64,000 nucleotides of DNA from Escherichia coli (GTDB lineage: Bacteria; Pseudomonadota; Gammaproteobacteria; Enterobacterales; Enterobacteriaceae): assembly GCF_024223415.1 (NCBI RefSeq), contig NZ_CP100502.1. One strand, written 5' to 3'. Each line of letters opens with the position of its first letter. The first letter of the stretch is position 1. The notes beneath the pieces were generated by a model. It made no database searches. It had not been told where the DNA came from and saw nothing but the letters and a program-made list of their open reading frames with translations. Position numbers and translations under genes: made by a program. This document shows, piece after piece, positions 31,764 through 62,467 of this stretch.

Positions 31764-31778
31764 TAACAAAAAGAGATC

Positions 31779-35589: not shown

Positions 35590-35616
35590 GCCAGTGGTAC
35601 TGGCATCTGGACGTGA

Positions 35617-36201: not shown

Positions 36202-36229
36202 TTTTTCAGTCCTGTTCTGACGTCAGCTT

Positions 36230-41057: not shown

Positions 41058-41146
41058 AGGTGAGGGAACTCCGGACTTACAGGAGGGAGGTTTGTGCAGT
41101 TTGATTTTTTTAATGCCACCCCGCGCTGGAGTGGCATGAAGAAAAA

Positions 41147-42119: not shown

Positions 42120-42182
42120 ATGTGCCTCCTTGTATTGCCGAACAGGAAGGGCACCGGATAAATGCCAGTGCCCTGGACAAGA

Positions 42183-42587: not shown

Positions 42588-42637
42588 AGTTTCTCCTTAA
42601 ATGGATATATCAGTGGTTTATATGAAGGTGAAAAAAA

Positions 42638-43165: not shown

Positions 43166-43869
43166 CAGCGTAACGTCCCTGCACTGGTGATGATGGTCCG
43201 GGTAGTCGGATCAATCCGCTGGATCACCACATTGCCCAGCGTCTGACCTTCTCTGACAGCCCAGGTACTACCCTGCCAGCGAATCCAGGCCATACCAGTT
43301 TCCATCGACATGATTTTCATTCCGTTAAGTACAGACGACGTTTTTTTCTTTGCTGGATGCGGTGTGGAAGAGGATTCAGTGACGCTTTTCTGTGTCATTA
43401 TTCCGTTCAGGCGGCTCCGGATATCATCCAGCTGACGGCGTGTTTCCTGTGCGTATTCTTCATCCTTTTTTATAGCTTCGCCCAGCTTGTTAATGCTGTC
43501 GTGAAGCATATTCAGTGTTGCCTGAATTTTTTCATCGCGGTTATCCAGCTCTGTTTTTACATCCCGGGCAAGCTGGCTCATATCTTCTCCTGTCCGGACA
43601 GTCATAGTCTCAGTGGACTGAACGGAAGGTGATGATTCTTGTGTGGTTTGCCAGGTCTGTACGCCAGCATCCGCATCATTAAACGGAGGCATGCCTGTTT
43701 CCGATGGCGCTCTCAGGAACAGATACCATATGGCTGCGAGCAACACGACTGCACATAGCCCCCATGTTGCTACAGATATCCCCCAGACGGAACGTTTCCA
43801 GAAGGGGGCGGGTTTCTCTTCGGGTTCACCGAAGCTGCCGGTTTCATCTATTTCTGTTTCAGGTTTCAT
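43165..43869 (-). CDS. traP: TraP
   Basis: seq: 234 aa with one N-terminal span; coupled to traQ. Confidence 0.65.
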   Translation of the reverse strand: MKPETEIDETGSFGEPEEKPAPFWKRSVWGISVATWGLCAVVLLAAIWYLFLRAPSETGMPPFNDADAGVQTWQTTQESSPSVQSTETMTVRTGEDMSQLARDVKTELDNRDEKIQATLNMLHDSINKLGEAIKKDEEYAQETRRQLDDIRSRLNGIMTQKSVTESSSTPHPAKKKTSSVLNGMKIMSMETGMAWIRWQGSTWAVREGQTLGNVVIQRIDPTTRTIITSAGTLR

Positions 43870-45158: not shown

Positions 45159-45160
45159 GA

Positions 45161-46144
45161 TTACTCCAGTTCTGGTGTCACGTGAACGGACTGGCCATTC
45201 ACAGAGAAAGTCAGTAGTGGGGTGACGGGAAGCTTCCAGAGATGAGTTCCGTCGGCAGAGGACAAGGTCTGTTCAAATTCATCGCGCAATATCGCCCGGG
45301 AACGAACCAGAAGGTCATCGCCGTGTTGCCAGATCGTTGTATCCGGGACATTACCTGTGAATTTCAGCCTCTTAACTGAAGGGTCCCGGGGAGGAATACC
45401 ATCCAGAAATGCCTGTAATGTTGCGTCATGCAGGGCGATTTTATCCGTCGGGATGGAGACAACCGGGCTGGTTGGTCCCTGCCGTGGTATTCGCAGATCC
45501 AGACGACTGTCCATTTCCTGACTGGATGACGGCGTATCTGTTTCGCCACTGGTTACGTTCAGGATGACCGGTACCGACAGACCTTTCAGGTAGACAGAAA
45601 TGTTTCCGGATGCCCATGGCCGCAATGGTGTGATTGTCACCATGTTCTCGTTGTACTGCACATCAAAGAGTTTTGGTGCCGCGTTATAAGGAGGATCGGA
45701 TTGTGGCCATGGTGAACCGTTGATATCGGTAAATGTCACTACGCTCAGGTTGTTCATGGCTGTGCGAACAAGAGGAAGGCTGGCACCGGGGGACAGATTA
45801 ACTGTCAGAGAGCTGATACGGGGTACAACACTGGTGATGGGCGCATTGATGGCCCGCTCGTTATCCGCCATGAGACTGCGTAGTGAGCGAATCTCATCGG
45901 CGGAGAGCTCAGAATCAAGTCTTGCCGCATCCTGTACCAGCGGGCTGGCCTGCCCGGGGGCAGGCAGCTCACCTTTTACCAGTGTTGCCGGAACACCTCC
46001 GGTGTTTTGGGAGGCGTTCTGAACGTGATCGCTGGCAGAATTTGTCGTTTGTGGTGTGCGTGCGTTCTGCCATCCTGCGTTATCTGCAGACGTGGCGGCG
46101 CTGCACACCAGGAGCAGTGTGCTCAGTAAATAACGTGATTGCAT
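45161..46144 (-). CDS. traN: TraN, secreted component
   Basis: seq: 327 aa with signal peptide 'MQSRYLLSTLLLVCSAATSA'. Confidence 0.7.
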   Translation of the reverse strand: MQSRYLLSTLLLVCSAATSADNAGWQNARTPQTTNSASDHVQNASQNTGGVPATLVKGELPAPGQASPLVQDAARLDSELSADEIRSLRSLMADNERAINAPITSVVPRISSLTVNLSPGASLPLVRTAMNNLSVVTFTDINGSPWPQSDPPYNAAPKLFDVQYNENMVTITPLRPWASGNISVYLKGLSVPVILNVTSGETDTPSSSQEMDSRLDLRIPRQGPTSPVVSIPTDKIALHDATLQAFLDGIPPRDPSVKRLKFTGNVPDTTIWQHGDDLLVRSRAILRDEFEQTLSSADGTHLWKLPVTPLLTFSVNGQSVHVTPELE

Positions 46145-46154
46145 ATTACTTATC

Positions 46155-46847
46155 TCAGGAGTTCGGTCCGGCGTTACGGGAGATCATCTGCCGGATTTCC
46201 ATACCGGATGGTTTCAGTCTGGGGTCAACACGCTGGATGGTGATTTCGAAAACAAAAGACTGTTCTGGCTTGCTGGTTGTCTGGCCGACCAGACGCATAC
46301 GGACAGGATACTGAAATGTCCAGAACCATACGCCGTCGGACATTTGTCCCTGTCGTACCAGAACGCCAGCGCCTGTCGTGGCGGTCAGATTCATCTTCTC
46401 TTTCTTGATCGTCTCCAGAATGTTAGATGCCTGTAATGCATTCACATATCCGGCAAAACCTTCGTCAGAAAAACGCGGAGACAGAGAGGAAATCTGTGAA
46501 CGATAGTGCACAAAATCCAGGTTGAATGCGGTCGCCAGTGCCTGGCTGCCAAAGGCCATTGCGTCATTCTGACTCCATGCTGGCTGATTTGTTGGTGCCA
46601 GCCTGACCAGACGACCATTGTCTGTAGCGAAATATTCGCGCTCCACATTCGTTGAGTGCCAGTACTGAATGGCGTTACCAGTAATACTGATAAGAAGACA
46701 TGTGCCCGTACATAAAAGCGCTTTTATCAGCGCAGGGACATTATTTGCCCGCTGTTCTGACTGCTTCATAGCCCTGATTGTGCTCTTCAGTATTTCCGGG
46801 TCAGGTGCCGGATGTGATGGCGAGGATGGCTCGGTATTTTCGGTCAT
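46155..46847 (-). CDS. traM: TraM
   Basis: seq: 230 aa with N-terminal span. Confidence 0.65.
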   Translation of the reverse strand: MTENTEPSSPSHPAPDPEILKSTIRAMKQSEQRANNVPALIKALLCTGTCLLISITGNAIQYWHSTNVEREYFATDNGRLVRLAPTNQPAWSQNDAMAFGSQALATAFNLDFVHYRSQISSLSPRFSDEGFAGYVNALQASNILETIKKEKMNLTATTGAGVLVRQGQMSDGVWFWTFQYPVRMRLVGQTTSKPEQSFVFEITIQRVDPRLKPSGMEIRQMISRNAGPNS

Positions 46848-47191
46848 AGGTTGTAGTCCTTCCAGGGATCAATATTCCCCGGCAGCTTTTCATTCACCTT
46901 GTCCACGACCGCGTCGCAGACCTGGTTTTCCAGCTGCGACAGAATGTCGTCAAGGCTGGGGAACTGGGGGAGGTTTATGCTGATTTTTTTGATTCGTGAC
47001 AGACAGGACTGCAGGGATGAGGAAACATCGTTTTCACGTTGTGACCATGCATCCGCAGCTGCACGTGCTCGCTCATATCCTGTATTACTACCGGCCTGTG
47101 CCGCGCTACCCGCACGACAGGTTGCAGCACTTGCCGTGGATGAAATCAGGATAAGGCCGAGCACGGCAACCAGAGACTTATGCATGTTCAT
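46844..47191 (-). CDS. traL: TraL, secreted small protein
   Basis: seq: 115 aa with signal peptide 'MNMHKSLVAVLGLILISSTASA'. Confidence 0.6.
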   Translation of the reverse strand: MNMHKSLVAVLGLILISSTASAATCRAGSAAQAGSNTGYERARAAADAWSQRENDVSSSLQSCLSRIKKISINLPQFPSLDDILSQLENQVCDAVVDKVNEKLPGNIDPWKDYNL

Positions 47192-47208
47192 ATGGCTTCC
47201 TTACCGGC

Positions 47209-50200
47209 TCATCGGCCGGGGCTGTGGGAGAGATCCTGATGCAGAGTTTTTTCCTGCCTGTCCTCCGGCTTTTGGCTGTTGGACCACTGCTGCCATGACT
47301 GCTCGAAGCCCAGGTTTCGGTACAACGCATCAGGTTGTTTTTCCGGCGTGTAGACAGCAGCAAAAAGCGGTTCTTCCCGGGTTTTCAGATGAAACTGCAT
47401 AAGCTCCGGTGCGGGGCGATTCGTGCTGTCAGCATCGTGGTTTACCGCTTCACCATAACCTGCAAAGCGTAAACCTTTGTCGGTCAGCGCATTGATAACC
47501 AACTGACTGTTGTCGGCCGATGGGGTGGCCAGTGCCGGATACAATGTGCCGTTCAGCCGGACCACACCCTGCAGATGTTCATCGGCACTCTGGACAAGTA
47601 ACAGGTTGAGTTCACGCGTATCCTTATCCACTGATCCCAGAACAGGTGTCAGCTTGTCAGGGGCTGCGCTGGTTATTTCTGTTACCTGATTCGCGTTCTG
47701 TGGCGCGGAGACCGGATGTCGGTCTTCACCGATAAACAGATGTGAGCCGACGTTTTCTGGCATACGTAACGCTTTCATCTCTTCGGGCCACCCCTGGCTG
47801 ATTTGCGCAGCCACTTTCATAAAGGTTTCGACCGGAATCGCCTGAATACGCTGACCTTTATCCGGATTATCATGTGATACCGAGATCCCGTTGGTAACTG
47901 ACTCCATGGACCACTTATTCCGGAAACGTGCTTTTTGCTCTCCCGGGAGGATGAATTGTTCGCGGTTCTGAAGTGTCAGTGTCACCACGTCACCTTTCTG
48001 ATGGTTTTTGACCAGACTTTCCAGTTGTTCCCCCCAGTAGAGTTTGCTGCCACTGCGGTTTTTAAGCTCAACAAAGAAACTCTCTCCTTTGCCGGGTGCA
48101 TATTCAGCACGACCAAAATTGTGCAGTACGGCAGTCACGCTCTCTCCCGGGCGAAGTTTTCCTGGTGGTTCTTCGTCTGGTGCCACATCTGCCGTTTTGC
48201 CTGGTTCAGCCGGTGATGGTGCAGAGGCGGTGCTGACGGTTGATGCTTCAGGGGCAACAGGGGACGCCGGGGATTGTGTGGCTTCTTTTTCCTGAACGGG
48301 GTCAGGGACAGCCGGTTGTTCTGGGGTATTCCGGTTAAGTTCCGGTGTTGGCTGATGGGTGACAACTGCATCCTTACTGACAGCCATTTCCTTGCGTAAT
48401 TTTTCTAGTTCAGCCCGTTGATCTGGCAATTTCATCCGGACATCGATGTTGTGCTCGATAATCAACTGCATTGCTTTTTGCTTAAAGGCATCACTGCCCG
48501 TCAGCTCTATGACGCCCCCATAAAATTTGGTGGCCACAGCAAGTGCGGCCAGAACGCTGCGATCGTCATTGCTGGCACCGTTGACCATTTCCAGCCGGTT
48601 TACCCGGTCAATGAAGGCAGGTTTGCCATCCAGTTTGTACAGGACGGTTCTGTCTGCTCGTTTTTCCCAGTCAAGCTCTTTAAGAATTTCGTCCATGTTG
48701 AGCGATATCGGTGCATCAGAACGTTCCGGGGCGTAGACAATACTGTCAGGTATCGGTGGAGTCGTCGTGGTTTCCGCTGAGGGCGTGGGATCACTGTTCT
48801 CATGTGCCTGTGAATCCGTTTTTTTACGCGTAAAAAAGCCACGCGCTTTGTCGAGAAACGATGAAGTATTATCAGAAGGTGATGTGCTCTGAACAGGTTG
48901 CTGTGGAGTGGGTTCATCCCGGACAGCCGGTTCTGCAGTATCTGTTGTGGCCTGAAGTTCTGACTCATCTGCCTGAACGTGGTCTGTGTCCGGTTGCGAC
49001 GGCATATCACTGTTTTCCTGCAGATGCTCAGGATTTTCATTGTTCATCAGCTCCTGATATGCGCTGTAGTTTTCGTATTCTTCGGGGCCATCTGACTCAG
49101 GAAGGAACGGCTCTGGCTGAAGGGGAATGTCTTCAGTTACATGGTTGACCGCCTCTTCCCGGGGAGTATCCGGGGATATTCCGGTGCTTTGTTTGTCATC
49201 AGGCTCCGTCATCACGGTCATTTCCTCTTTGACTGCATCAGGGGAAGGTGATGGCTCGGCTGATTCATTCATGGTTTCAGATGAGGGACTGTCTTCAGGG
49301 GATGCGGGGGCGGCAGCAGGGGCCGGTATTTCAGGTGAAGTGCCGGATTCCTGTTGTGACTCGTTTTTTTCCGGTTGTGACAGTTCGGCTTCAAATTCAC
49401 GCCAGTCTTTATCTGTGGCCACCGAGACAACTTTTTCCGGAGGTTCCGCCGGATGAGCGGGTTCATCAGGGGCAGATGCCGTTGTACTTTCCGGGGACGC
49501 CGGTGATTCTGCAGGGGAGTCCTGAACTACAGAGCTTTCCGTTTGCGCCTGAACGTTATCAGCGTGCCGCTCATCTTTGCCGTTATTTTCAGTGGCGTGA
49601 CTGGTAAATGACTGTGTTTCATCAGCAATGTTACTGCTGGAAGCAGCTGGTTGTTCCTGCTGCGTGGCGGACGGCAGAGAAGGTCCCTGGTCATGGCTGT
49701 GCCCTGTATCGGGTGATGTTTCAGGATATTCTGTCGGAGTCATGGTTTTTTCCTCAGTGTGGACCGGTGTAAAAACGAGGTTGCCGATCACCAGTGCCTC
49801 GCGGATTTCCGGGGTGTTACTGTTGGGGGTGGAAACCCCGATGTGTTCTAACTGGGCGTTGATGACATGCTGAAAAGCGGCCCGTCCCCGGCTTGCGTCC
49901 AGGTCATTGAAATCGGTCAGCCCCTGCGCTTTTTCGGCATCGGTGAACGCAGGAAAGATGACCGTTCCTCCTGTCAGTTCTGCGGCTTTTGTTGCACTGA
50001 CGATACCTTTGTTAACCCGGATTGCATGATCGTTGTCGGCACAGAAGATAAAGGGGCTTTGCGTCCACTTTTGCCGGGCATTTTCGGCAACGGCAATCAT
50101 GTTGCCTCCATCCACCGTCATCAGTACCGGAAGGCCCGTGGCTTCGTGCAGGGAGGCCGCAGTGGCATAGCCCTCGGCAAACAGTACCGGCTGACCGTTG

Positions 50201-50976
50201 CGCGGTGTGCCCAGCGCAAACCAGTTACCGGTTTTCTCTGAATCTTTCAGGATGCGGGCATCCTTCCCCCCGGTGACCGGAATACGCTGGTAAGAGCGTA
50301 TCGCGCCGTTACGGTTACTGAAGGGAATAACCAGTTCATTTTTGTTGTTTACCCGCACCCCCGGTGCAGCCTGAATGCCTTTCCGGGTCAGGTATTCATG
50401 TGCTGTGGCCTGCGGCCATTTGTTGACATAGCGGCGGGCATACGCGGCCTGTCGGTTGTACTGTGCTTTCAGTTCCCGCTCCGCGTCCTCCCTGCGTTGC
50501 ATTGAATGCGCTTTCAGGTGGAGTCTTGCGCGGGGATCTGTCTGTTCTCCGCCGGAGAAGGTCCAGGTGATCGGCGAATCATCCGCGCTGCGATAATCCC
50601 TGTACCAGCCGGCAGGTCTGCCGTCCAGGAATCCGCGATATGCGCCACTTTTTTGTCCTTTTTTGTCATCGGCGGTCGGGACACGGTGGATTTTCCCGTC
50701 CATGACCGGCAGTTCTTTCAGAACCAGTCCGGCATTCTCCAGAACCTGGGCAAACTCGGTGACCGGATCACTGCCGTTCATGGAGACGTCCTGTGGCCGG
50801 GGCAGCCAGCGGTCCAGCCTGGACAGGTCCGCCCCCGGGCGGGCGAACCAGAGTTTGTGCTCCTTGTCCCAGATGACGGGCGTGTGCCCGTTCATCGGGG
50901 GATGTGCTTTTTTGAGATCTTCTATTTCATCTGCAGGCACGGCAAGCCAGGTGCGGTAGCGGGATACAGACGGCAT
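47209..50976 (-). CDS. sog: Sog conjugative DNA primase
   Basis: seq: ATG 50976 with GGAG RBS gives 1255 aa 'MPSVSRYRTW...' (track ORF 1301 aa from 51114); acidic/Pro-rich middle region. known: size and position match IncI1 Sog. Confidence 0.85.
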   Translation of the reverse strand: MPSVSRYRTWLAVPADEIEDLKKAHPPMNGHTPVIWDKEHKLWFARPGADLSRLDRWLPRPQDVSMNGSDPVTEFAQVLENAGLVLKELPVMDGKIHRVPTADDKKGQKSGAYRGFLDGRPAGWYRDYRSADDSPITWTFSGGEQTDPRARLHLKAHSMQRREDAERELKAQYNRQAAYARRYVNKWPQATAHEYLTRKGIQAAPGVRVNNKNELVIPFSNRNGAIRSYQRIPVTGGKDARILKDSEKTGNWFALGTPRNGQPVLFAEGYATAASLHEATGLPVLMTVDGGNMIAVAENARQKWTQSPFIFCADNDHAIRVNKGIVSATKAAELTGGTVIFPAFTDAEKAQGLTDFNDLDASRGRAAFQHVINAQLEHIGVSTPNSNTPEIREALVIGNLVFTPVHTEEKTMTPTEYPETSPDTGHSHDQGPSLPSATQQEQPAASSSNIADETQSFTSHATENNGKDERHADNVQAQTESSVVQDSPAESPASPESTTASAPDEPAHPAEPPEKVVSVATDKDWREFEAELSQPEKNESQQESGTSPEIPAPAAAPASPEDSPSSETMNESAEPSPSPDAVKEEMTVMTEPDDKQSTGISPDTPREEAVNHVTEDIPLQPEPFLPESDGPEEYENYSAYQELMNNENPEHLQENSDMPSQPDTDHVQADESELQATTDTAEPAVRDEPTPQQPVQSTSPSDNTSSFLDKARGFFTRKKTDSQAHENSDPTPSAETTTTPPIPDSIVYAPERSDAPISLNMDEILKELDWEKRADRTVLYKLDGKPAFIDRVNRLEMVNGASNDDRSVLAALAVATKFYGGVIELTGSDAFKQKAMQLIIEHNIDVRMKLPDQRAELEKLRKEMAVSKDAVVTHQPTPELNRNTPEQPAVPDPVQEKEATQSPASPVAPEASTVSTASAPSPAEPGKTADVAPDEEPPGKLRPGESVTAVLHNFGRAEYAPGKGESFFVELKNRSGSKLYWGEQLESLVKNHQKGDVVTLTLQNREQFILPGEQKARFRNKWSMESVTNGISVSHDNPDKGQRIQAIPVETFMKVAAQISQGWPEEMKALRMPENVGSHLFIGEDRHPVSAPQNANQVTEITSAAPDKLTPVLGSVDKDTRELNLLLVQSADEHLQGVVRLNGTLYPALATPSADNSQLVINALTDKGLRFAGYGEAVNHDADSTNRPAPELMQFHLKTREEPLFAAVYTPEKQPDALYRNLGFEQSWQQWSNSQKPEDRQEKTLHQDLSHSPGR

Positions 50977-51064
50977 GAGTGCTTCTCCTGAAAAAAGACG
51001 GAAAAAAACCACCGCCGGAAGCCGGGGGGGCTGGGGGGATAGAAAATCGGGGGAGAAATGTTTG

Positions 51065-51616
51065 TCAGGGTTTCCAGTCTGTACCCTTATTCCAGCGATC
51101 CTGCCAGTGTTCAAGATATTGTGCGGCTACATCCGGCATATTCTTGAGCACAACGACATTCTCTGAATTCTTGCGTGCAGCAGCACGAGAGAAGTTATAG
51201 GAGCCAGTTTCAACCGTGTTTCCGTCAACAATGATGACTTTGTCGTGATGGATGGGGAAGGCATCTACAGTCCGGAGAGGAATGTCCAGCAGGTTGATAT
51301 ATTTCATCGCTTCCTGACTTGCCCGGTTCGTATTCCCCTTGTCATCAACAACAATACGGACGTCCACTCCGCGTTTTTTCGCTTTTGCCAGCGCATGCAT
51401 TACATCCGGGTCGGTGAAGGAATATGCCATCATCCTGATGGAGCTTTCCGCACTGTTGATTGTGTCAAGCACCAGAGCGGATGCGCTTCCTTCAGGAGAA
51501 AAGCCGACCTTCACGGATGGCGTGTCGATCATTGCAAACGATGGTGTCGTGAACAGTAACGGGCATGCCAGTAGCGATACCCGGAGCAGAGTAACGATAG
51601 TTTTTTTACCTGACAT
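51065..51616 (-). CDS. nuc: Secreted phospholipase-D-family endonuclease Nuc
   Basis: seq: ATG 51616 with GGAG RBS gives 183 aa 'MSGKKTIVTLLRVSLLACPLLF...'; HKD motif 'IHHDKVIIVDGNTVETGSYNFSRAA' (track ORF 303 aa). Confidence 0.8.
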   Translation of the reverse strand: MSGKKTIVTLLRVSLLACPLLFTTPSFAMIDTPSVKVGFSPEGSASALVLDTINSAESSIRMMAYSFTDPDVMHALAKAKKRGVDVRIVVDDKGNTNRASQEAMKYINLLDIPLRTVDAFPIHHDKVIIVDGNTVETGSYNFSRAAARKNSENVVVLKNMPDVAAQYLEHWQDRWNKGTDWKP

Positions 51617-51630
51617 AAAGACTCCAGAAT

Positions 51631-51921
51631 TTAATCGAGGCCAGTCCAGTCTCGTGGTGATTCCGTATGGTGGCGATACCACCATGGACGACCGGAGGCG
51701 ATGGCCCCTCTCAGAATGCTGAAAATGCGTGTACAGATAGTCCTGACAGTCCAGCCTGAACGGTCGAGAATAACGAAAAATAAAATGATGCCGGTGCAAA
51801 TCCAGAAGGTTGTTTTGGAGGGAAAGGGGCATATAAACAGATAAATCATGGTGAACGGCAGAGGTACGCCCTGGATGTTGACTGGCGGTGTTGCATATCG
51901 CCAGAAACCTTCTCTTTTCAT
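51631..51921 (-). CDS. traK: TraK, small membrane protein
   Basis: seq: 96 aa, hydrophobic core; coupled to traJ. Confidence 0.55.
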   Translation of the reverse strand: MKREGFWRYATPPVNIQGVPLPFTMIYLFICPFPSKTTFWICTGIILFFVILDRSGWTVRTICTRIFSILRGAIASGRPWWYRHHTESPRDWTGLD

Positions 51922-53066
51922 GACCGTAACTCCCCTGGCGGGATAAAAAGAATCGCTTCTCTTCGGTCAACTTCATTCCGGATATACATTTCCAGAATCT
52001 GGTCCCGGATACGGCGCTTCTCCTGCCGGATTATGGCATCAATGTGATGCCCCCACTCTGCATGCGGCATTCCGGAAAGATTGTCGCGAAGCTCATCGTT
52101 AATGACGATATATTCCCGGACGGCTTTACGACCACCGTCATTTGTTCTGACCAGAACCTGAACCAGAATGAACTGCAACAGTGACAGGACAGCCCAGGCC
52201 ATCGAATCCCTGATGACAGGGGGAAACAGCCCAAGAAGACGTGCCAGCGTTTCACCAGGAGATTTCGTATGCATGGTGCTCAGGCAGTAATGCCCGGTGT
52301 TGCCTGCCTGTACCGCTGCGTCGGCGGTTTCGTTATCCCTGATCTCACCAACACCGATAATTTCGGGATTACGTCGTACAGCAGAACGCAGTCCGGCAGC
52401 AAAACTGACCACATCACGCCCGATTTCTGCCTGATGCGGTGGGAGCAGATCGTTTTCATTTCCCAGGATATATTCCACCGGGTCTTCATATGTCACGATT
52501 TTGGCGTCGGGGAAATTGTCCATAATGTAACGGTACAGTGCTGAACACAGCGTTGATTTTCCTGACCCGGTTTCACCACATACAAATCCCAGACCGCTTT
52601 TGCAGACCATTGCTTCAAGCAGGTCTGGTTCAATGTTCATGGAGAGAATGTCCGGTATTTCTGTCGGGATGACACGCATGGTTATTGAGATTGCTTTCTC
52701 CTCCGCACCAGATGTGCCCTGAATGAGGTGAGAGCGTAACCGGATGCGTTCTCCGCGTTTAAGACCATAGCGCCCGGATGCATCCCCGTTAATCTGTATC
52801 GTCCTGTCAACCGGATTGCCTGCCAGAACGCGGGGAATGACTTCCCGACCGAACAGTTCATCAATCAGGGAGGACATGAGTGTGGTTGGTAACGTTGCAC
52901 TGGAACAACGCACCCGTCGGCCAAAGCGACTGACAGATACAGGTGACCCGCCGGTCAGATCCACATCACTGACTTTATGTGCGGCACACCAGACAAAGAA
53001 ATGCCGTAGTTCATCTGCAGTGAAACGCTGAAACGGAAAAAGACCAAACTCATCAGGAATATTCAT
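51918..53066 (-). CDS. traJ: TraJ, PilT/DotB-like T4SS ATPase
   Basis: seq: 382 aa with Walker A 'GETGSGKST'. Confidence 0.85.
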   Translation of the reverse strand: MNIPDEFGLFPFQRFTADELRHFFVWCAAHKVSDVDLTGGSPVSVSRFGRRVRCSSATLPTTLMSSLIDELFGREVIPRVLAGNPVDRTIQINGDASGRYGLKRGERIRLRSHLIQGTSGAEEKAISITMRVIPTEIPDILSMNIEPDLLEAMVCKSGLGFVCGETGSGKSTLCSALYRYIMDNFPDAKIVTYEDPVEYILGNENDLLPPHQAEIGRDVVSFAAGLRSAVRRNPEIIGVGEIRDNETADAAVQAGNTGHYCLSTMHTKSPGETLARLLGLFPPVIRDSMAWAVLSLLQFILVQVLVRTNDGGRKAVREYIVINDELRDNLSGMPHAEWGHHIDAIIRQEKRRIRDQILEMYIRNEVDRREAILFIPPGELRS

Positions 53067-53881
53067 CGGGAGCCTCCTTCAGTGCCTATAAGCGGACGCC
53101 AGTGAGATTTCTGAAGATTGAATTCCGCATGATTTTTAAGGCGACGAACACGATCTCCAGTGACCAGTTTTTTCCCGTCACCTGTAACGGTTTGCATTTG
53201 ATCAGAAACATCCGGACGGGTGATCATGCCCTGACGCCAGAGAAGTGAGTACAGCATCATGCCCCGGTAATCACGGGTGAGGGTTTTCTGGTTGGCTTCA
53301 AGCGTCAGGTCGGCGTTTTGTCTTCCTTCCTGCCATCCCTGCCGTAATGCGGTTTCCCACACTTTTCGTTGCACGCTGTCTTCTGGAACGACGCTGCCTT
53401 CTGTACCCGGAGTGGCTGTTGTTGAAAGCCCCCGGAGAAGCCAGTCACGCCAGCCCGGTGGATTGCTGACAAAGCGTTCAGGGCGAATGATGGTCCAGAC
53501 CCGGGAAGAGGTCCGGATTTGATCTGGCGTGATATGAGCTACGTCCTGTGCTTCATCAATAACCGGTGGTAGCCAGCCTTCCGGGCTAATCAGTGGCCGG
53601 AAATCGTATAAGGCATTAAGTGTGCTTTCCCGGGCGTTGAGCGCCTGAATCAGCTCCCATGAACGCTGAGCCTTGCCACCACGAAATCCAAGCGTTTTAC
53701 CTGCGTCTGTCAGCATTTTCCAGCGTGTTTCTGACAGACTATCCGGCTTTTCACTTCGTGGTTTAAGCCATGCATTAATGTCAGGTGGTGGCGTATTGAC
53801 ACCACCTGGCGAGATGGTAGGGGAAGAAGAACAACCAGTAAGCAGTATTACTGGCAAAAGGAGAGAGGTGAGTGCTTTCAT
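53063..53881 (-). CDS. traI: TraI lipoprotein
   Basis: seq: 272 aa with lipobox 'LLLPVILLTGCSS'. Confidence 0.7.
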   Translation of the reverse strand: MKALTSLLLPVILLTGCSSSPTISPGGVNTPPPDINAWLKPRSEKPDSLSETRWKMLTDAGKTLGFRGGKAQRSWELIQALNARESTLNALYDFRPLISPEGWLPPVIDEAQDVAHITPDQIRTSSRVWTIIRPERFVSNPPGWRDWLLRGLSTTATPGTEGSVVPEDSVQRKVWETALRQGWQEGRQNADLTLEANQKTLTRDYRGMMLYSLLWRQGMITRPDVSDQMQTVTGDGKKLVTGDRVRRLKNHAEFNLQKSHWRPLIGTEGGSR

Positions 53882-54336
53882 TTTTTCCGGTTCTCCGGCT
53901 GCATGAAGCTGACCTGTAACAAGCCCGGATATTGATGGATTGTTGCTCTCCAGGCTGTCTGGGCTTCAATAAGTCTCAACGTATTGGAAAACGTCATATC
54001 CCGGACGTGAAGGTTGACTGGTAACGGCAGGCGGACACCATTGTAGTTAAACTGCATCCCCCTGACTCTGGCCAGTTCGTTCAGTAATTCAATTGCATCA
54101 CCTTCCCAGTCAAAGGAAAGGCGATCGCTGTTAGCTGTCAGAAGATGAGACCCCGTTGAAACCGGAAGTTGGCCGGAAAATACACCTTTGTCCCATAATG
54201 TGTACTGAGTGTGCCGGGTAACCGCCACATCAGAGGCAGCACCGTAGTTACGCGGAACAGGAGTATGCTGAGAAGGGGAGTTGCAGCCAGCCAGAAAAAG
54301 GGCGGCAAGACACCCCGCAGGTATAATACGGTTCAT
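53878..54336 (-). CDS. traH: TraH lipoprotein
   Basis: seq: 152 aa with lipobox 'LAALFLAGCNS'. Confidence 0.7.
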   Translation of the reverse strand: MNRIIPAGCLAALFLAGCNSPSQHTPVPRNYGAASDVAVTRHTQYTLWDKGVFSGQLPVSTGSHLLTANSDRLSFDWEGDAIELLNELARVRGMQFNYNGVRLPLPVNLHVRDMTFSNTLRLIEAQTAWRATIHQYPGLLQVSFMQPENRKK

Positions 54337-54730
54337 AATAATTCCTGAGCAGTTAAATCAGAATGGGATATACCGGTGCTCCGGTACAGACAGGATGATG
54401 TTTGTTTCCGGCTATACTTGCGTTACCGGAAATAAATGCCAGTGTGGCCAGGTAAATAGCCTCATAGTTTACTGAAGGTGATTATTCCTGATACTGGCTG
54501 GTTGATGTGTCGTCAGACATAAAACGAATATGAGCGTAATCTTTAACGCTCCGCGCCGAATCGATCCATGATGGATGACTCGACGATTTATGAATCGAAC
54601 GTACCGGCGCTTGTCCCTGAAACAGTTCCCGGCCCTCGTCCGGATAACCTGCAATTCAGACAGGCACATGTGCCCGTACACTCTTGTATCTTACTGAGTA
54701 TATCAGAATTTATGTAAATTCAAATATCCT

Positions 54731-55315
54731 CTATGCCTCTTTGTTGTATTTTCCGTCAAGTATGAGCCGGGTACCATCGTAATGCATGATCAGGGCATCA
54801 AGGTACGCCGGTTTGAATTTCTTGCCGAGCCTATCTCTGGCCAGAAATGATAAACAATGATTATGTGTCATTATTACTATGTTCCTTTTATGAGATTCTC
54901 TTGCGATTGATTCAAGCGTCTTATAAAGATCATTATTGCAGTCTGATAAACTGTCCATAACGACGGGTTCTTTACCGGAGAAGAATTTTGCAGTTTGTAT
55001 GGTTCTTACCGCATTGCTGGAGTAAATATCATATTCACTGAAGATTGTTGCGAACTTAATACCTTCCTGCTGTGCTTTCTCTGTACCGGTAATAGTGATT
55101 CCGCTTTTATCCGAATAGCATGGCATATCTGAACGGTCGCAACGTTCTCCATGGCGGAAAAGGAAAATAACGGTGTTATCAGCATTAATTTCTTTTGCCT
55201 GTTCCAGGGTGATATCGGGAAGCGAGCTTTTTGCTTTTGTCACTGCCGCTACCAGGAAAACAGAAAATAAAAGAATGAATGCTGTTTTTGAATAAGAAGA
55301 ACGTGGTTTCATCAT
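54731..55315 (-). CDS. Secreted histidine-phosphatase-superfamily protein (possibly traG)
   Basis: seq: 194 aa with signal peptide and RHG motif 'FLFRHGER'. infer: traG naming by position only. Confidence 0.55.
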   Translation of the reverse strand: MMKPRSSYSKTAFILLFSVFLVAAVTKAKSSLPDITLEQAKEINADNTVIFLFRHGERCDRSDMPCYSDKSGITITGTEKAQQEGIKFATIFSEYDIYSSNAVRTIQTAKFFSGKEPVVMDSLSDCNNDLYKTLESIARESHKRNIVIMTHNHCLSFLARDRLGKKFKPAYLDALIMHYDGTRLILDGKYNKEA

Positions 55316-55374
55316 GTTATTTAAACTGAATATAAAAATACCCCCGGGTTTAGTGCCGGGGGCGGGGACAGTAA

Positions 55375-56577
55375 TCAGAAAGTGAACTGAAGTTGTGCCA
55401 TTGCACCGTAATCGTGGTCAGTTCCTACCAGGCCGGAAACATCGATATGTACGACGTCAAATGGAGAGATACCAACGCCAGCGGTGAAGGCGCTTCCGGA
55501 GTTTGATGCCATGTTCTGACGATAACCGGCACGCAATTGCGCCCATTTCCATGCGTTAAATTCAGCACCAACACTTGCAAACTGACGTTTGCTGTCAGAA
55601 GTGAAGCCACTGGCAGGAGTCAGATCAATGTCAAGAGCAGTGGTAAACAGGTCATTATGCCAGGATACACCGGCGGTTGCCTGCGGACGAACTTTGAAGG
55701 TTTCTTTAAAGCCATTGACGACTTTAGTATCAATACTGCGTGGAATGATGTTCTGGGCAACAAGACCGACAGTCCAGTTGTCATTCAGGTCTGTATAAGC
55801 ACCAATATCGGCGTTGAATCCGTTTTTCGTGTTGTGGTACTTGTCACCGTCAAAATCGTCTTTGTCGTAATCACGAACCGTTACGTTGTAGTTAAACAGG
55901 TCCACACGCTGATATTTTGGTGTGACGCCAAGAGACCATTTTTGTCCGGCCGTTTCCAGTTCTTTGGCAAATGAAATTCCGACGTCGGTAATTACAGCTG
56001 CACGCCCGAATGCGCGTGAGGTCAGGGCATTCTTATCGACGTCGGTAATTGTTCCATTGGCAACTTTGTCCAGATAATCCAGGTCTGCATCGTTTACTTT
56101 TCCGTTTACGCTGACAGTTCCGTAAGACTTGACCATAAGGGCAAACGGCAGAGTGTCATTTGCCATGGCTGCTACAGCTGATACACCTACCTGAGCATCT
56201 GCATTGATATTGCGGAATTCCTGCAGACGATGTTTAAGATTTGCCGCTGCCTGTTGTACGCCATGCTGGTTATCTACAGCACTGTCAAACAAATCCCAGT
56301 CATCTTTAACATCATCAGCTTTATTTGATACATCATCAGGATCAGCAACTTGTGCCCCAACAGACGGCAGAAGAAGGCTGAAATCATCATTGCTGTTGTG
56401 CTTTGTCAGTAAAGCCGGGTTTGCCAGAGGTGCCACACCATAATGGGAAGATGCTACCCCGGTACCACCCATTGCATCGTTACGCGCTTCAAAATATGAC
56501 GTCGCTGCTGCAGCGTTAAAGGAAAATAATACAGCAGATGCAATGATGGTGCGGGTAATATGATTTTTCTTCATCAT
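55375..56577 (-). CDS. Outer-membrane beta-barrel-like protein (possibly traF)
   Basis: seq: 400 aa with signal peptide 'MMKKNHITRTIIASAVLFSFNAAAA' and C-terminal 'QLQFTF'. infer: traF naming by position only. Confidence 0.55.
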   Translation of the reverse strand: MMKKNHITRTIIASAVLFSFNAAAATSYFEARNDAMGGTGVASSHYGVAPLANPALLTKHNSNDDFSLLLPSVGAQVADPDDVSNKADDVKDDWDLFDSAVDNQHGVQQAAANLKHRLQEFRNINADAQVGVSAVAAMANDTLPFALMVKSYGTVSVNGKVNDADLDYLDKVANGTITDVDKNALTSRAFGRAAVITDVGISFAKELETAGQKWSLGVTPKYQRVDLFNYNVTVRDYDKDDFDGDKYHNTKNGFNADIGAYTDLNDNWTVGLVAQNIIPRSIDTKVVNGFKETFKVRPQATAGVSWHNDLFTTALDIDLTPASGFTSDSKRQFASVGAEFNAWKWAQLRAGYRQNMASNSGSAFTAGVGISPFDVVHIDVSGLVGTDHDYGAMAQLQFTF

Positions 56578-56661
56578 TTAATTTCCTGTTTATCAGAATT
56601 TAGACAAAACAACGCTATGACACGGATGTGCCGTAATTTTTACTTTGGTACTATCTGGTAT

Positions 56662-56928
56662 TTACCAGGGTAATAAAGACGTATTAAATAAGCTAACAGG
56701 TAGTATTTGCCCTGTAATAAGGTTCCCGGCAAGGCCAGGTCTCAACGTGACGCGTCGCAAAGACATTGTTGTATTCTGCCTGGTTGTATATTCAGTTAAC
56801 CATTTTCTTTTTTCATCGTTCAGAAGTGTTGGTGATAATGATAGTGCCGGATATATTACAGAGCCATTTATTTCTTTTTTCTGTCTCAATATTACCCCGC
56901 AATATTCTCTTTTCGTGTTTCCTGCGAA
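56662..56928 (-). pseudogene. 3' part of a traE-like gene separated from its 5' part by IS2
   Basis: seq: minus-strand frame continues from 58265 across the duplicated GGGGA into 56928..56662 ('...HSFP|FAGNTKREYCGVILRQ...'), reconstructing a 273-aa ORF. Confidence 0.7.
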
Positions 56929-56944
56929 GGGGATGGATTTGCCC

Positions 56945-57850
56945 CTATATTTCCAGACACCTGTTATCACTTAACCCATTACTGGCCTGCTGCCGCAGAT
57001 ATTCCCGTGGCGAGCGATAACCCAGTGCACTATGCGGATGCCATTCGTTATAATGCTCGAACGCCTCTGCAAGGTTCTTTGCTGCCGTTAACCCGTCTGG
57101 TTTAGGCATGATACTGATGTAGTCACGCTTTATCGTTTTCACGAAGCTCTCTGCTATGCCGTTACTCTCCGGACTCCGCACCGCCGTGTTCTTCGGTTCA
57201 AGCCCCAACATCCGGGCAAACTGCCGTGTTTCATTAGCCCGGTAGCATGAACCATTATCCGTCAGCCACTCTACTGGAGACGCCGGAAGCTCGTTGCCGA
57301 AGCGGCGTTCCACCGCTCCCAGCATTACGTCCTGTACTGTTTCACTGTCGAAGCCGCCCGTAGTGACTGCCCAGTGCAGTGCCTCACGGTCACAGCAGTC
57401 CAGCGCGAACGTGACTCGCAGTTTTTCTCCGTTATCACAGCGGAACTCGAACCCGTCAGAGCACCATCGTTGATTGCTTTCTTTCACGGCCACTTTGCCA
57501 GTATGTGCCCGTTTCGATGGCGGTACAGCGGTTTTTCGCTCAAGCAACAGCGCATTCTGGCGCATGATCCGGTAAACACGTTTGGCATTGATCGCAGGCA
57601 TACCATCAAGTTCGGCCTGTCTGCGAAGCAGCGCCCATACCCGACGATAACCATACGTGGGCAGCTCTCCGATAACATGGTGTATACGGAGAAGCACATC
57701 CGTATCATCTGAGTGACGGCTGCGGCGACCATCTTTCCAGTCATCGGTTCGTCTGAGAATGACGTGCAACTGCGCACGCGACACCCGGAGACAACGGCTG
57801 ACTAAGCTTACTCCCCATCCCCGGGCAATAAGGGCGCGTGCGCTATCCAC
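56945..57850 (-). CDS. insD: IS2 transposase orfB (DDE integrase core)
   Basis: seq: 301 aa '...[31 protein letters not shown]...[16 protein letters not shown]'. Confidence 0.9.
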
Positions 57851-58218
57851 TTTTTTGCACGCCCGTATTCAACGGCTTCTTTAAGGAGTTCATTTTCCAT
57901 CGTTTTTTTGCCGAGCAGGCGCTGGAGTTCTTTAATCTGCTTCATGGCAGCAGCAAGTTCAGAGGCAGGAACGACCTGCTCTCCTGCGGCCACAGCAGTA
58001 AGACTTCCCTCCTGGTATTGCTTGCGCCAGAGAAATAACTGGCTGGCTGCCACACCGTGTTGCCGGGCAACAAGGGAGACCGTCATTCCCGGTTCAAAAC
58101 TCTGCTGAACAATAGCGATCTTTTCCTGTGTAGTACGCCGTCTGCGTTTCTCCGGTCCTAAGACATCAATCATCTGCTCTCCAATGACTAGTCTAAAAAC
58201 TAGTATTAAGACTATCAC
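57808..58218 (-). CDS. insC: IS2 transposase orfA (HTH)
   Basis: seq: contains '[56 protein letters not shown]'; true start probably internal to the track ORF. Confidence 0.8.
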
Positions 58219-58264
58219 TTATTTAAGTGATATTGGTTGTCTGGAGATTCAGGGGGCCAGTCTA

Positions 58265-58822
58265 GGGGAAACTATGCCAGAAAATAACTTCAGTGTTGCT
58301 GCTATCACTAATAAGCATTCTGAAATTATCAGCAGTATCTGGCCATTCACCGGACAACGCTATCGGATAGTTTTCATGGCCATTCAGCCAGTCCGGATTG
58401 AGATTAAAACATTCAGCAAGATGTTCGAGAGCGTCAGCTGAAAGATAGTCTGCAAGTCTGGCCGGGTCCTGTATAACCGTGGAGCGGATATTCCATGGCG
58501 ACAGCAATGTTGCCAGTAATGGCGCATTTATATCATGCGACAGCATGATGTATTCAATTCTGCTTATTATGTTTCCTGTGGTGTTATCCGCAGGCATAAA
58601 CATATTATGAAGAGCATCCTCAAGCAGGATTCGGGTTAAATCAGCGGTGGATATGGCTAATTGTTCGCTCATTATCCCCAGAACTTCTCTTACCCCTTGG
58701 GGGTAACGGACCTGCAGAGGTGTCGGGTTTATCTGACGACCGTTGATGAGTTTTTCGCCGATTGCTTTTTTGTCCAGCGAGAGCATCATTCGGGCCGCAA
58801 TACCGGTCGTATTCAGTCTCAT
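58265..58822 (-). pseudogene. 5' part of the traE-like gene (185 codons) truncated by IS2
   Basis: seq: the ORF's stop codon (58262..58264) is supplied by the IS2 terminal 'cta'; see 56662..56928. Confidence 0.7.
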
Positions 58823-58972
58823 TGTTCCTCCGACTGAAAAAGTCTTTTCAGCTCATGTGGTTATTGTATCTTCGGTGTTTTTTCTGGTGAAACGAATAAT
58901 TTCGATCATGCAGATCGAATGTGTTTGGCGAGTTGTTGCAACTCGCCTTTCTGTATGTGTTTTGAATGATGT

Positions 58973-60017
58973 TTACAGCGGGGTGCTGCCCGGGTTCAGA
59001 GGGCAAATCATAATGTAGTCAGGGTCGTTAACAGGTAACGCTCCGGGAGATGGGACACGTTCGCCTTTCTGTGCTGCAATGGCCAGTGTACGCAACAAAA
59101 CCTCACTGGCGCGGTGAACTGCTTCCTCTTTCGTTGTGGCAGTGACGTGAAGGTTATCAAAATCACCGATCTCAATACGATGCGCTTTCTGCCCATTTTC
59201 TTCATCGATGGTCGTGATATGGGCAGGATACGGCACAAACCATGCTGCCACTTTTTGTGTCTGCCGCCGGCGGGCATCAAGCTTACTGACCAGTTGCCAT
59301 GCACGAAGATGAGTATACCGTTTCAGCATATTCATGGAACGATGTCCTGATATTGCAGCAATCTCCATTACATTCAGGCTACCCAGTTCGAAGAAGCGGC
59401 TTATTGCTTCATGCCGTAGATCGTGAAAATGCAGGTCCTCGATGCGAAGTCGTTGTGTGGCTATTCTCCAGGCATTTTTAAAGCCGGATGCGGTGTAATC
59501 AAAAACATTGCCGTGGAGATTAACGGGCATCATCTGAAGAAAGTTACGGGCACGTCTGGACAGAGGAACATCCCGTGAGTGACCGTTTTTGGTTTCAGGT
59601 AAATGAGCCACACCGTGGCGCAAATCAATGTGCTCCCAACGTAAGGCCAGTATTTCGCCCTGCCGCATGGCTGTCTCAAGGGCAAGATGGAAAATGACAT
59701 ACAACATCAGATTTTTTTCGCGGAAATAGCGAGAAAGGCGACGTTCTTCTGAAGACGTTAGCCGGCGATCTCGTCCCGAGGATACTTTCGGCTTGCGAAC
59801 CAGTTCAACCGGGTTAGTACGACAGGTTCCCCATTCAACACGAGCAATATTGAACAGAGATGACAGAAGGGCGAGTTCAAGACGTACAGTATTACCTGTA
59901 ATGGGTTTACCCGTTCGGGGGTTGATTTCTGCTAAACGAACGTCTCTGTATGTAGCAATATCAACGGTTGTTATTTCGTCCATATTCCGAAGGGCAATGG
60001 GATATCGCTTGATAACA
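58973..60017 (-). pseudogene. rci: rci (shufflon-specific tyrosine recombinase), 3' portion downstream of the IS66-family insertion
   Basis: seq: 336-aa ORF with '[40 protein letters not shown]'; joining with 62468..62577 across one TSD copy gives exactly 384 aa '[19 protein letters not shown]...[18 protein letters not shown]...', the size I recall for R64 Rci. Confidence 0.85.
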
Positions 60018-60088
60018 GTAAGCGTACAGCCTGAACCGTCTGGTCAGAATCTGACGAATTAGACAAAGTGGTGTCCACCAAATAAGTA

Positions 60089-60490
60089 GTGGGAACCAAA
60101 GTGTCAGATATGCAGAAAAATGTGACTCCCGGCAGGCGAAAAGGCTGCCCTAATTATCCTCCCGAATTTAAACAGCAGCTCGTTGCTGCCTCCTGTGAAC
60201 CCGGGATATCCATCTCAAAACTTGCTCTTGAAAATGGCATTAACGCCAATCTGTTGTTCAAATGGCGACAACAATGGCGCGAGGGAAAGCTGCTATTACC
60301 TTCTTCAGAGAGCCCCCAGCTACTTCCTGTGACTCTCGATGCAGCTGCCGAACAGCCAGAATCGCTCGCAGAGGACCCGGAAACCCTCAGTATCAGCTGT
60401 GAGGTAACGTTCCGGCACGGGACGCTCCGCTTCAATGGCAATGTCAGCGAAAAGCTCCTGACTCTGCTGATACAGGAACTGAAGCGATGA
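60089..60490 (+). CDS. IS66-family accessory protein TnpA (orfA)
   Basis: seq: 133 aa, first ORF of the element. Confidence 0.75.
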   Translation: MGTKVSDMQKNVTPGRRKGCPNYPPEFKQQLVAASCEPGISISKLALENGINANLLFKWRQQWREGKLLLPSSESPQLLPVTLDAAAEQPESLAEDPETLSISCEVTFRHGTLRFNGNVSEKLLTLLIQELKR

Positions 60491-60834
60491 TCCCTTTACC
60501 TTCCGGGACCAAAATTTGGCTGGTTGCCGGTATCACCGATATGAGAAATGGCTTCAACGGCCTGGCTGCGAAAGTACAGACGGCGCTGAAAGACGATCCC
60601 ATGTCCGGCCATGTTTTCATTTTCCGGGGCCGCAGCGGCAGTCAGGTTAAACTGCTGTGGTCCACCGGTGACGGACTGTGCCTCCTGACCAAACGGCTGG
60701 AGCGTGGGCGCTTCGCCTGGCCGTCAGCCCGTGATGGCAAAGTGTTCCTTACACAGGCGCAGCTGGCGATGCTGCTGGAAGGTATCGACTGGCGACAGCC
60801 TAAGCGGCTGCTGACCTCCCTGACCATGCTGTAA
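60487..60834 (+). CDS. IS66-family TnpB (orfB)
   Basis: seq: 115 aa '[31 protein letters not shown]...' overlapping the orfA stop. Confidence 0.8.
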
Positions 60835-60883
60835 ATCTCTTTATCCTGGTTGTCACAGAATAAGCCCGGTAAAATACGGGCTT

Positions 60884-62422
60884 ATGAACGACATCTCTTC
60901 TGACGACATCTTCCTGCTGAAACAGCGCCTGGCCGAACAGGAAGCGCTGATCCACGCCCTGCAGGAAAAGCTGAGCAACCGGGAGCGCGAAATAGACCAT
61001 CTGCAGGCGCAGCTGGATAAACTCCGCCGGATGAACTTCGGCAGTCGTTCCGAAAAAGTCTCCCGCCGTATCGCACAAATGGAAGCCGATCTGAACCAGC
61101 TTCAGAAAGAGAGCGATACGCTGACTGGTAGGGTGTATGACCCGGCAGTACAGCGTCCGTTGCGTCAGACCCGCATCCGTAAGCCGTTCCCTGAATCACT
61201 ACCCCGTGACGAAAAGCGACTGTTGCCTGCGGCGCCGTGCTGCCCGAACTGCGGCGGTTCACTGAGCTATCTGGGCGAGGATACCGCCGAACAGCTGGAG
61301 TTGATGCGTAGCGCCTTCCGGGTTATCCGGACGGTACGGGAAAAACATGCCTGTACTCAGTGCGATGCCATCGTGCAGGCACCTGCACCTTCGCGGCCCA
61401 TCGAGCGGGGTATCGCCGGACCGGGGCTGCTGGCCCGCGTGCTGACCTCGAAGTATGCAGAGCACACCCCGCTGTATCGCCAGTCAGAAATATACGGCCG
61501 GCAAGGTGTGGAGCTGAGCCGTTCACTGCTGTCGGGCTGGGTGGATGCATGCTGCCGGCTGCTGTCTCCGCTGGAAGAGGCGCTTCATGGCTATGTCATG
61601 ACTGACGGCAAACTCCATGCCGATGATACCCCGGTCCAGGTACTGATGCCGGGTAATAAGAAGACGAAGACCGGGCGGTTGTGGGCGTATGTTCGTGATG
61701 ACCGCAATGCCGGGTCAGCGTTGGCACCTGCAGTGTGGTTCGCTTACAGCCCGGACAGAAAAGGCATCCATCCGCAGACTCATCTTGCTTGCTTCAGCGG
61801 TGTGCTGCAAGCGGATGCGTACGCCGGGTTCAACGAGCTGTATCGCAATGGTGGGATAACGGAAGCTGCCTGCTGGGCTCATGCCCGCCGAAAGATCCAC
61901 GATGTGCACGTCCGCATCCCGTCAGCACTGACGGAAGAAGCCCTGGAGCAGATCGGTCAGTTGTACGCCATAGAGGCGGATATAAGGGGAATGCCGGCAG
62001 AGCAGCGGCTTGCTGAACGTCAGCGAAAAACGAAACCGCTGTTGAAATCCCTGGAAAGCTGGTTGCGTGAAAAGATGAAGACCCTGTCGCGACACTCAGA
62101 GTTGGCGAAGGCGTTCGCGTACGCACTTAACCAGTGGCCGGCACTGACGTACTATGCGAACGATGGCTGGGTGGAAATCGACAACAACATCGCTGAAAAT
62201 GCCCTGCGGGCGGTAAGTCTGGGTCGTAAAAACTTCCTGTTCTTCGGCTCTGGCCATGGTGGTGAGCGGGGAGCGCTACTGTACAGCCTGATAGGGACGT
62301 GCAAACTGAATGACGTGGATCCAGAAAGCTACCTTCGCCATGTGCTTGGCGTCATAGCAGACTGGCCGGTCAACCGGGTCAGCGAACTGCTTCCGTGGCG
62401 CATAGCACTGCCAGCTGAATAA
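60884..62422 (+). CDS. IS66-family transposase TnpC (orfC)
   Basis: seq: 512 aa with N-terminal coiled-coil/leucine-zipper, CxxC pairs and a DDE-like catalytic region. Confidence 0.8.
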
Positions 62423-62467
62423 CACATCCCCGTCAATACGGCCCTCGCTGTACGCTTACTGATAACA

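Follow-up and report, generated by a model that had tools for sequence, protein, structure and literature searches.

An IS2 insertion splits traE of an R64-type IncI1 plasmid and is probably inherited as a near-neutral lineage marker

The window, by which we mean the whole 64,000-nucleotide stretch of DNA analysed here, contains a complete IS2 element that has transposed into an R64-type traE gene and split TraE, an event that is most probably neutral or nearly neutral for transfer and inherited as the marker of a plasmid lineage. An active IS2 copy entered traE at codon 186/187 of an R64-type IncI1 plasmid and duplicated 5 bp of its target. A 186-amino-acid N-terminal fragment of TraE, ending on a TAG codon provided by IS2, could still be produced, whereas the predicted C-terminal alpha/beta domain is separated from the start of the gene. 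The insertion would be (near-)neutral for transfer because traE and traF, the latter being the only gene likely to share the transcript, are dispensable for conjugation in the relatives R64 and pESBL, and because a terminator upstream of traG and traH appears to close the transcription unit. The IS2::traE allele appears to persist in one plasmid lineage that includes pLH09-a-B and dozens of assemblies, of which the window plasmid would be a member that later gained an ISEc8-like element in rci. The case can be regarded as an ordinary one of an insertion sequence breaking a non-essential accessory gene in a common resistance-plasmid backbone, and the allele is useful for tracking this IncI1 sub-lineage.

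IS2 occupies positions 56934..58264 on the minus strand, with its transposase read in the same direction as traE. On the plus strand, the right-end junction (56929..56940) reads GGGGA followed by TGGATTTGCCCC and the left-end junction (58255..58269) reads GGCCAGTCTA followed by GGGGA. These pentamers constitute the target-site duplication, with the downstream copy at 56929..56933 and the upstream copy at 58265..58269, where it reads TCCCC on the gene strand and corresponds to traE nucleotides 554-558; the chance of five equal flanking bases is approximately 1/1024. An IS-free reconstruction of 3787 bp, extending from the 3' end of rci to traH, aligned to the collinear rci-traH segment of R64 without gaps and with one mismatch (99.97% identity). 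At the insertion point R64 possesses a single TCCCC, that is, an empty site in traE, whereas traE of the window plasmid is split by IS2. Because removal of the element restores the R64 sequence without gaps and the flanking bases match, the insertion is certain, and the clean R64 empty site proves simple IS2 transposition.

Deletion of IS2 together with one repeat gave an uninterrupted minus-strand open reading frame from 58822 to 56662, and the restored protein of 274 amino acids was identical to R64 TraE (NC_005014.1, WP_001238939.1) at 274/274 residues. The present reading frame (58262..58822) encodes 186 amino acids and its TAG stop (58262..58264) consists of the outermost three bases of IS2 at its left end (TAGACTGG). 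The 5' part of traE, codons 1-186 (58265..58822, minus strand), retains predicted ribbon-helix-helix (RHH)-like and XRE-type helix-turn-helix (HTH) parts, and the 3' remnant, codons 187-274 and the stop (56662..56928, minus strand), has lost its start codon and holds most of the predicted C-terminal alpha/beta domain. The initial annotation had described an IS2 of exactly 1331 bp at 56934..58264 that was flanked on both sides by GGGGA and lay between rci and traF/traG as R64 traE does, and had proposed aligning the reconstructed protein to R64 TraE. The element is borne out by its termini and its 100% identity to known copies, the duplication by the lone TCCCC of R64 and the position by the R64-type gene order, and the alignment returned 100% amino acid identity over the full length. 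Its reading through the pre-insertion junction and its attribution of the current stop codon to the IS2 terminus also stood, but the protein sizes that it gave, 273 amino acids for the reconstruction and 185 for the current product, were each one residue too low.

The inserted element was a complete 1331-bp copy of IS2 (IS3 family) with its left end (IRL) at window position 58264, its right end (IRR) at 56934 and the termini TAGACTGGCCCCC... and ...GGGGCAAATCCA. Many E. coli chromosomes and plasmids carry copies with 100% identity to it; a search with IS2 gave a match in 4899 of 5426 genomes and at least 99% identity in 1767 records. Close copies carry the annotation 'IS3-like element IS2 family transposase', and in pLH09-a-B PGAP labels the identical copy 'IS3 family transposase' and notes a programmed frameshift. 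Both reading frames were intact on the minus strand: orfA (InsC-like, 121 amino acids, HTH_Tnp_1; 57808..58173), which begins at an internal ATG at 58173 of an open reading frame spanning 57808..58218, and orfB (InsD-like, 301 amino acids, rve integrase core; 56945..57850), which overlaps orfA at the A6G frameshift site (AAAAAAG, seen as cttttttg on the plus strand near 57855). Identical IS2 copies carry orfA as a 121-amino-acid gene with PF01527 and orfB with PF13276, PF00665 and PF13683. The inverted repeats are imperfect, as TGGATTTGCCCCTATATTTCCAGACA and TAGACTGGCCCCCTGAATCTCCAGACA share GCCCC and TCCAGACA blocks with a one-base offset, and an ungapped comparison of the ends yields too low a match count. 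Length, identity, two overlapping reading frames with a programmed -1 frameshift, imperfect inverted repeats and a 5-bp duplication were all those of IS2.

The gene order in the window was that of R64 (pilV-shufflon-rci-traE-traF-traG-traH), with the features described here on the minus strand. A promoter-like site, TTCACC-17-TACAAT, in the rci-traE spacer (58863..58891) is the candidate traE promoter, and a strong terminator-like hairpin of 8 pairs, 7 of them G-C, followed by ATTTTTATAT (55340..55363), lies directly 3' of the traF stop, both calls being matches to consensus only. The first gene downstream of IS2 is traF (55375..56577), which encodes a predicted TraF_2/PorV-like outer-membrane barrel of 400 amino acids, and the traE-traF unit likely ends at the hairpin behind it. 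Beyond the hairpin, traG (54731..55315, 194 amino acids) scores 295 bits with NF011945 (cut-off 142) and encodes a PmrG/Ais-like LPS core heptose(II)-phosphate phosphatase. It is followed, after a 394-bp spacer, by traH (53878..54336, 152 amino acids), which encodes a DotD-type lipoprotein; going downstream from IS2, traH is the first gene that pESBL needs for transfer.

The traEFG genes of R64 were unnecessary for conjugation according to Komano 2000, as cited in PMC6112013. Transposon sequencing of the IncI1 plasmid pESBL gave probabilities of being non-essential of 0.93 for TraE, 1.00 for TraF, 0.79 for TraG and 1.00 for Rci, and a probability of 0.98 for TraH being required for transfer (PMC4288162); the dispensability data for both R64 and pESBL derive from laboratory matings into E. 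coli K-12. Since traEFG could be hit without loss of pESBL transfer although traH is required, such insertions do not appear to be strongly polar on traH and beyond. The initial annotation had allowed that its reading would fall if the insertion proved phenotypically silent, and the literature on the two relatives R64 and pESBL leans in that direction.

IS2 is a source of polar insertions and of gene activation through an outward -35, as indicated by titles cited in PMC12095673 and by the review PMC9330008, and the classical insertions in the gal operon and in the ampC fusion promoter (Jaurin and Normark 1983; PMC9330008) involved the same element and raised the same questions of polarity and outward -35 activity. 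Unlike those cases, the window has no suitably spaced -10 after the IS2 right end, and its important downstream genes lie behind a terminator-like site. No -35/-10 pair was found across the right-end junction even at a relaxed threshold of 8 of 12 matches, which rules out a fusion promoter there at that threshold, and promoter activity was reportedly undetectable for the 150-bp IS2 right end (PMC12095673). A search for terminator-like sites within IS2 on the tra strand returned none. Given the hairpin after traF and the 394-bp spacer before traH, polarity should stop at traF, and any effect of IS2 in cis should stay within this gene, which is dispensable in relatives. The earlier suggestion that the insertion could be polar on, or provide a new promoter for, traF to traH is not upheld in view of the terminator-like hairpin after traF, the lack of a junction promoter and the dispensability of traF and traG.

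Ten further independent IS2 insertions, differing in position and duplication, were identified in the IncI traE-traG segment of other plasmids: at codons 96, 141 and 219 of traE, at codons 44, 71, 86, 124, 153 and 187 of traG, and in the traG-traH spacer. The carriers were pEC21Z048-80K, RCS76_pI, pP377-CTX-M, pZ0117EC0098-1, pB25FEP-2, pND11_107, pSA20104250.1, an E. fergusonii RHB02 plasmid, phyx-2 and pEND_Eco 14033-2. Nine of the insertions had a 5-bp duplication, and the remaining one, in pEND_Eco 14033-2, had a duplication of 4 bp and an IS copy 1333 bp long; two of the ten insertions had the opposite orientation and some involved a 96%-identical IS2 variant. These cases share the element family and the dispensable gene block with the window but arose as independent events, and natural insertions of this kind add to the evidence that the traE-traG block tolerates disruption. 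An apparent orientation bias, in which the first eight cases were all co-directional, was rejected as an ascertainment artefact, as that search joined same-strand pieces only. With artificial queries composed of the region plus IS2 in forward or reversed orientation, the unbiased PLSDB count was six co-directional and two opposite independent cases, which is not significant.

None of the 11 IS2 insertions fell in traF (p of approximately 0.005 under uniform targeting). The insertion sites are AT-rich, with a local GC of 0.26-0.44, and AT-rich windows make up 11% of traF in comparison to 37% of traE and 48% of traG. Because traF has few such windows, target preference is a sufficient explanation for the lack of traF insertions, and selection against IS2 in traF was dropped as an interpretation. 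Overall, traE was contiguous in 1882 of the 1912 PLSDB plasmids with a TraE homologue and non-contiguous in about 1.6%. A differently truncated TraE, ending in the peptide GTVANSRW, occurred on 90 contigs; we take this peptide to be a translated IS26 end.

TraE had no Pfam match even at E <=10 and no NCBIfam match, and a PDB sequence search gave nothing significant; four of 39 TraE relatives touched the Pfam family RelB at E 0.03 or weaker. A search of 1.8 billion representative proteins returned relatives of 290-390 amino acids with 20-33% identity that aligned over their full length, and a model built on their alignment reached a pLDDT of 88 and a pTM of 0.74. In the modelled protein the N-terminal half is helical, and an alpha/beta domain begins at approximately residue 164 and makes up the C-terminal part. 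This confident model resembles XRE-type HTH and RHH folds, whereas curated sequence models of XRE-family HTH and ribbon-helix-helix (CopG/MazE-type) proteins fail to match TraE, and the C-terminal alpha/beta domain has no assigned fold. TraE is accordingly predicted by its modelled structure to be a DNA-binding protein (RHH plus XRE-type HTH) rather than a pilus or channel part, and the database names 'F pilus assembly' and 'thick pilus protein', which the predicted fold does not support, were apparently carried over from other entries by name. IS2 would cut just after the first strand of the predicted C-terminal domain, leaving the putative DNA-binding half in the 186-amino-acid product. TraE is conserved in about 1900 plasmids, with homologues well beyond IncI1, and this conservation implies that it must have some selected function that is missed by standard matings. 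A predicted DNA-binding TraE could guide work on the role of this conserved 'dispensable' gene.

Three alternatives to a (near-)neutral split of traE were considered. It is improbable that IS2 acts chiefly on its neighbours, being polar on traF and possibly traG-traH or driving their expression, with transfer changed as a result. Such an effect would be in keeping with the class of polar and activating IS2 insertions known from the titles cited in PMC12095673 and from PMC9330008, and approximately 350 nt of untranslated traE remnant and spacer before traF could permit Rho-dependent termination; read-through from the transposase transcript is also possible, as the element runs in the direction of the tra genes and the search for terminator-like sites on the tra strand of IS2 returned none. 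All four IS2 insertions in traE are also co-directional, although this corresponds to a one-sided p of approximately 0.06 and the 6 to 2 count from PLSDB showed no significant bias. Against either form of the effect, the hairpin and the 394-bp spacer limit its reach to traF, traF and traG are themselves dispensable, the junction holds no fusion promoter, and transposon hits throughout traEFG of pESBL left transfer unreduced even though traH is required (PMC4288162).

Alternatively, the truncation may alter function, such that the 186-amino-acid fragment, a predicted DNA-binding half freed of the C-terminal domain, regulates plasmid genes in an altered way and has been selected in the lineage. 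The predicted division of TraE into a helical RHH/XRE-HTH half and an alpha/beta domain from about residue 164 is compatible with this, as are the wide distribution of the truncated allele and the sparing of at least 96 N-terminal codons by all four traE insertions. In a metagenomic traE allele that lacks IS2, codon 187 itself has changed from TTC to the stop TAA, and two contigs of a third allele break off no more than 2 nt from this point. However, the nonsense allele comes from a metagenome contig with a coverage of 4.5, contig ends are weak evidence, and the insertions at codons 96 and 141 fall inside the HTH region, which indicates that there is no favoured truncation point. DNA binding is itself a prediction, with no match in Pfam or NCBIfam, and traE knock-outs had no transfer phenotype in PMC4288162 or as cited in PMC6112013, which together make selection for an altered regulator quite improbable. 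Little credence can likewise be given to the wider proposal, taken as a whole, that TraE is an RHH plus XRE-HTH regulator and not a part of the apparatus, that its stable fragment rewires plasmid genes and that truncation near residue 186 is recurrent. Third, there is a negligible chance that the junctions are false and arose when the assembly merged IS2 reads into a plasmid contig. IS2 is a multicopy repeat and a frequent cause of broken or mis-joined assemblies, and many public contigs with this allele stop at the IS boundary, but the 5-bp duplication is perfect, the R64 empty site is gapless, and the complete pLH09-a-B, like contigs of 118.6, 68.1 and 39.4 kb assembled from other samples, shows the same two junctions.

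The preferred interpretation, a (near-)neutral insertion inherited within one lineage, was further informed by the closest plasmid. pLH09-a-B (NZ_CP100546.1), an IncI1 plasmid of E. coli LH09-a from pooled poultry faeces in Switzerland, has the same IS2 at the same traE position with the same TCCCC duplication, and PGAP annotated its two traE halves as traE pseudogenes. IS2::traE was therefore already known in the sense that it is present and annotated in public plasmid records; the literature found on E. coli LH09-a concerned its chromosome only. Window positions 13681..48178 and 48934..60017 were 100% base-identical to pLH09-a-B, a comparison that leaves out the 755 bp at 48179..48933. The two plasmids differ in their shufflon arrangement and by a few SNPs and indels in the leading region, and where the ssb gene and a ParB-like gene are marked as frameshifted in pLH09-a-B, the window sequence contains additional bases. 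They also differ in rci, which is intact in pLH09-a-B and carries in the window an additional 2442-bp ISEc8-like element of the IS66 family (60018..62459) with an 8-bp duplication, TGATAACA, within the 5' end of the gene. The sequence comparison places the rci insertion after IS2::traE.

Public data contain the exact 186-amino-acid truncated protein (WP_225103456.1) on at least 29 contigs and in 51 index blocks, which stem from samples of unrelated projects in NCBI, Logan and ENA. Three of the longer contigs (118.6, 68.1 and 39.4 kb) had exactly the same IS2 junctions. The occurrence of the same truncated protein and the same junctions across unrelated projects indicates that IS2::traE is inherited and marks a lineage in circulation. 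The allele could have become widespread through clonal expansion of its host strains and not through conjugation. Among the matches listed, a 384-amino-acid rci accompanied WP_225103456.1 at 8 of 9 places, and rci was in two pieces at the ninth.

The initial annotation had also proposed, from the traE and rci insertions together, that the transfer system is under decay. In the annotation tables of pLH09-a-B, nikAB, trbABC, traH-traY and excA carry no pseudogene flags, and neither does any pil gene from that of the GspE/PulE-type ATPase through pilV, those upstream of pilV lying outside the window; flags appear solely on the two halves of traE and on three genes that do not belong to the transfer system. 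In the window, nikAB, trbABC, traH-traY and excA were base-identical to pLH09-a-B, leaving out the 755 bp (48179..48933) in an LPD7-domain gene. Decay of the core transfer system is thus not supported by this comparison, as the core genes match unflagged copies and only two accessory genes, traE and rci, are hit. By what is known of the R64 shufflon, a plasmid without Rci should be locked in one PilV arrangement, which could restrict its range of recipients in liquid matings. IS2::traE and ISEc8 in rci occurred together in no complete E. coli genome record, and no such record covered at least 80% of a 9-kb query spanning both; in the best ISEc8-bearing match the IS sits in a pil gene and not in rci. 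It is the two insertions together that set the window plasmid apart from its closest sequenced relative.

Interruption of traE was not confined to the window, as IS2 has entered the traE-traG block of other IncI plasmids in ten more independent insertions (loci L002-L008 and L022-L024). These lie at codons 96, 141 and 219 of traE, at codons 44, 71, 86, 124, 153 and 187 of traG and in the traG-traH spacer, while none of the ten was found in traF (1203 bp). The DNA at these sites is AT-rich, and AT-richness of the target may explain the IS2 insertion pattern, including its absence from traF.

Truncated forms of traE with other apparent causes were also found. On 90 contigs, the longest of 101 kb, TraE runs for 172 residues and then ends in GTVANSRW and a stop codon (proteins P0039 and P0040, in the cluster of the truncated TraE). 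This tail corresponds to a translated terminal repeat of IS26, which points to another lineage, more widespread than the first, in which IS26 has entered traE. Additionally, a divergent traE allele on a metagenome contig (L012, ERZ8810624, positions about 1560-1575) carries a TTC to TAA nonsense change without an insertion sequence at codon 187, the codon of the IS2 site in the window traE, and contigs bearing a third allele (L010, L011) end no more than 2 nt from that site. This agreement in position may be due to chance, to a hot spot or to truncations that arose convergently.

IncI1 TraE (window 56662..58822) had no family in Pfam or NCBIfam. Its structure model (m3ab8899cb059; alignment A1) was confident, with a pLDDT of 88, and predicts an RHH-like motif and an XRE-type HTH, together with a C-terminal alpha/beta domain. 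Related proteins occur across Enterobacterales, Vibrio and Burkholderiales, and database names such as 'F pilus assembly' or 'thick pilus protein' are apparently misnomers for TraE. At the right end of IS2, a 102-aa ORF (56662..56970, minus strand) starts at a GTG inside the element and continues in frame into traE codons 187-274, with no obvious ribosome-binding site upstream of its start; if translated, its product would carry the C-terminal TraE domain behind 12 residues encoded by IS2 and two more contributed by the duplicated TCCCC. The neighbouring traF and traG (54731..56577, minus strand) look like envelope-modifying accessory genes, TraF being a predicted PorV/FadL-like outer-membrane barrel (PF13729) and TraG a PmrG/Ais-like LPS core heptose(II)-phosphate phosphatase (295 bits against a cut-off of 142).

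The window also carries a 2442-bp IS66-family element in rci (60018..62459), which is lacking in the near-identical IncI1 plasmid pLH09-a-B; no complete E. coli record combined this insertion with that of IS2 in traE. The element has termini GTAAGCGTAC.../...GTACGCTTAC, is flanked by an 8-bp duplication, TGATAACA (60010..60017 and 62460..62467), and encodes tnpA, tnpB and tnpC-like ORFs (60089..62422, + strand); a matching copy in NZ_CP058876.1 is annotated as ISEc8. As rci is interrupted after nt 110, Rci has probably lost its activity and the shufflon is likely to be frozen.

The leading region contains, within 9725..18249, repeated segments of about 355 bp (9725-10078 resembling 16709-17062) and 500 bp (11398-11904 resembling 17752-18245). 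Within 10796..13680, SNPs relative to pLH09-a-B cluster around 160 bp that do not align (11239-11401), a pattern resembling a patch introduced by recombination. Compared with the same plasmid, the window carries one more G at 12462 and a further GC at 13679-13680, the sites of the annotated frameshifts in the ssb and ParB-like genes of pLH09-a-B, and thus the window probably holds the intact copies of both.
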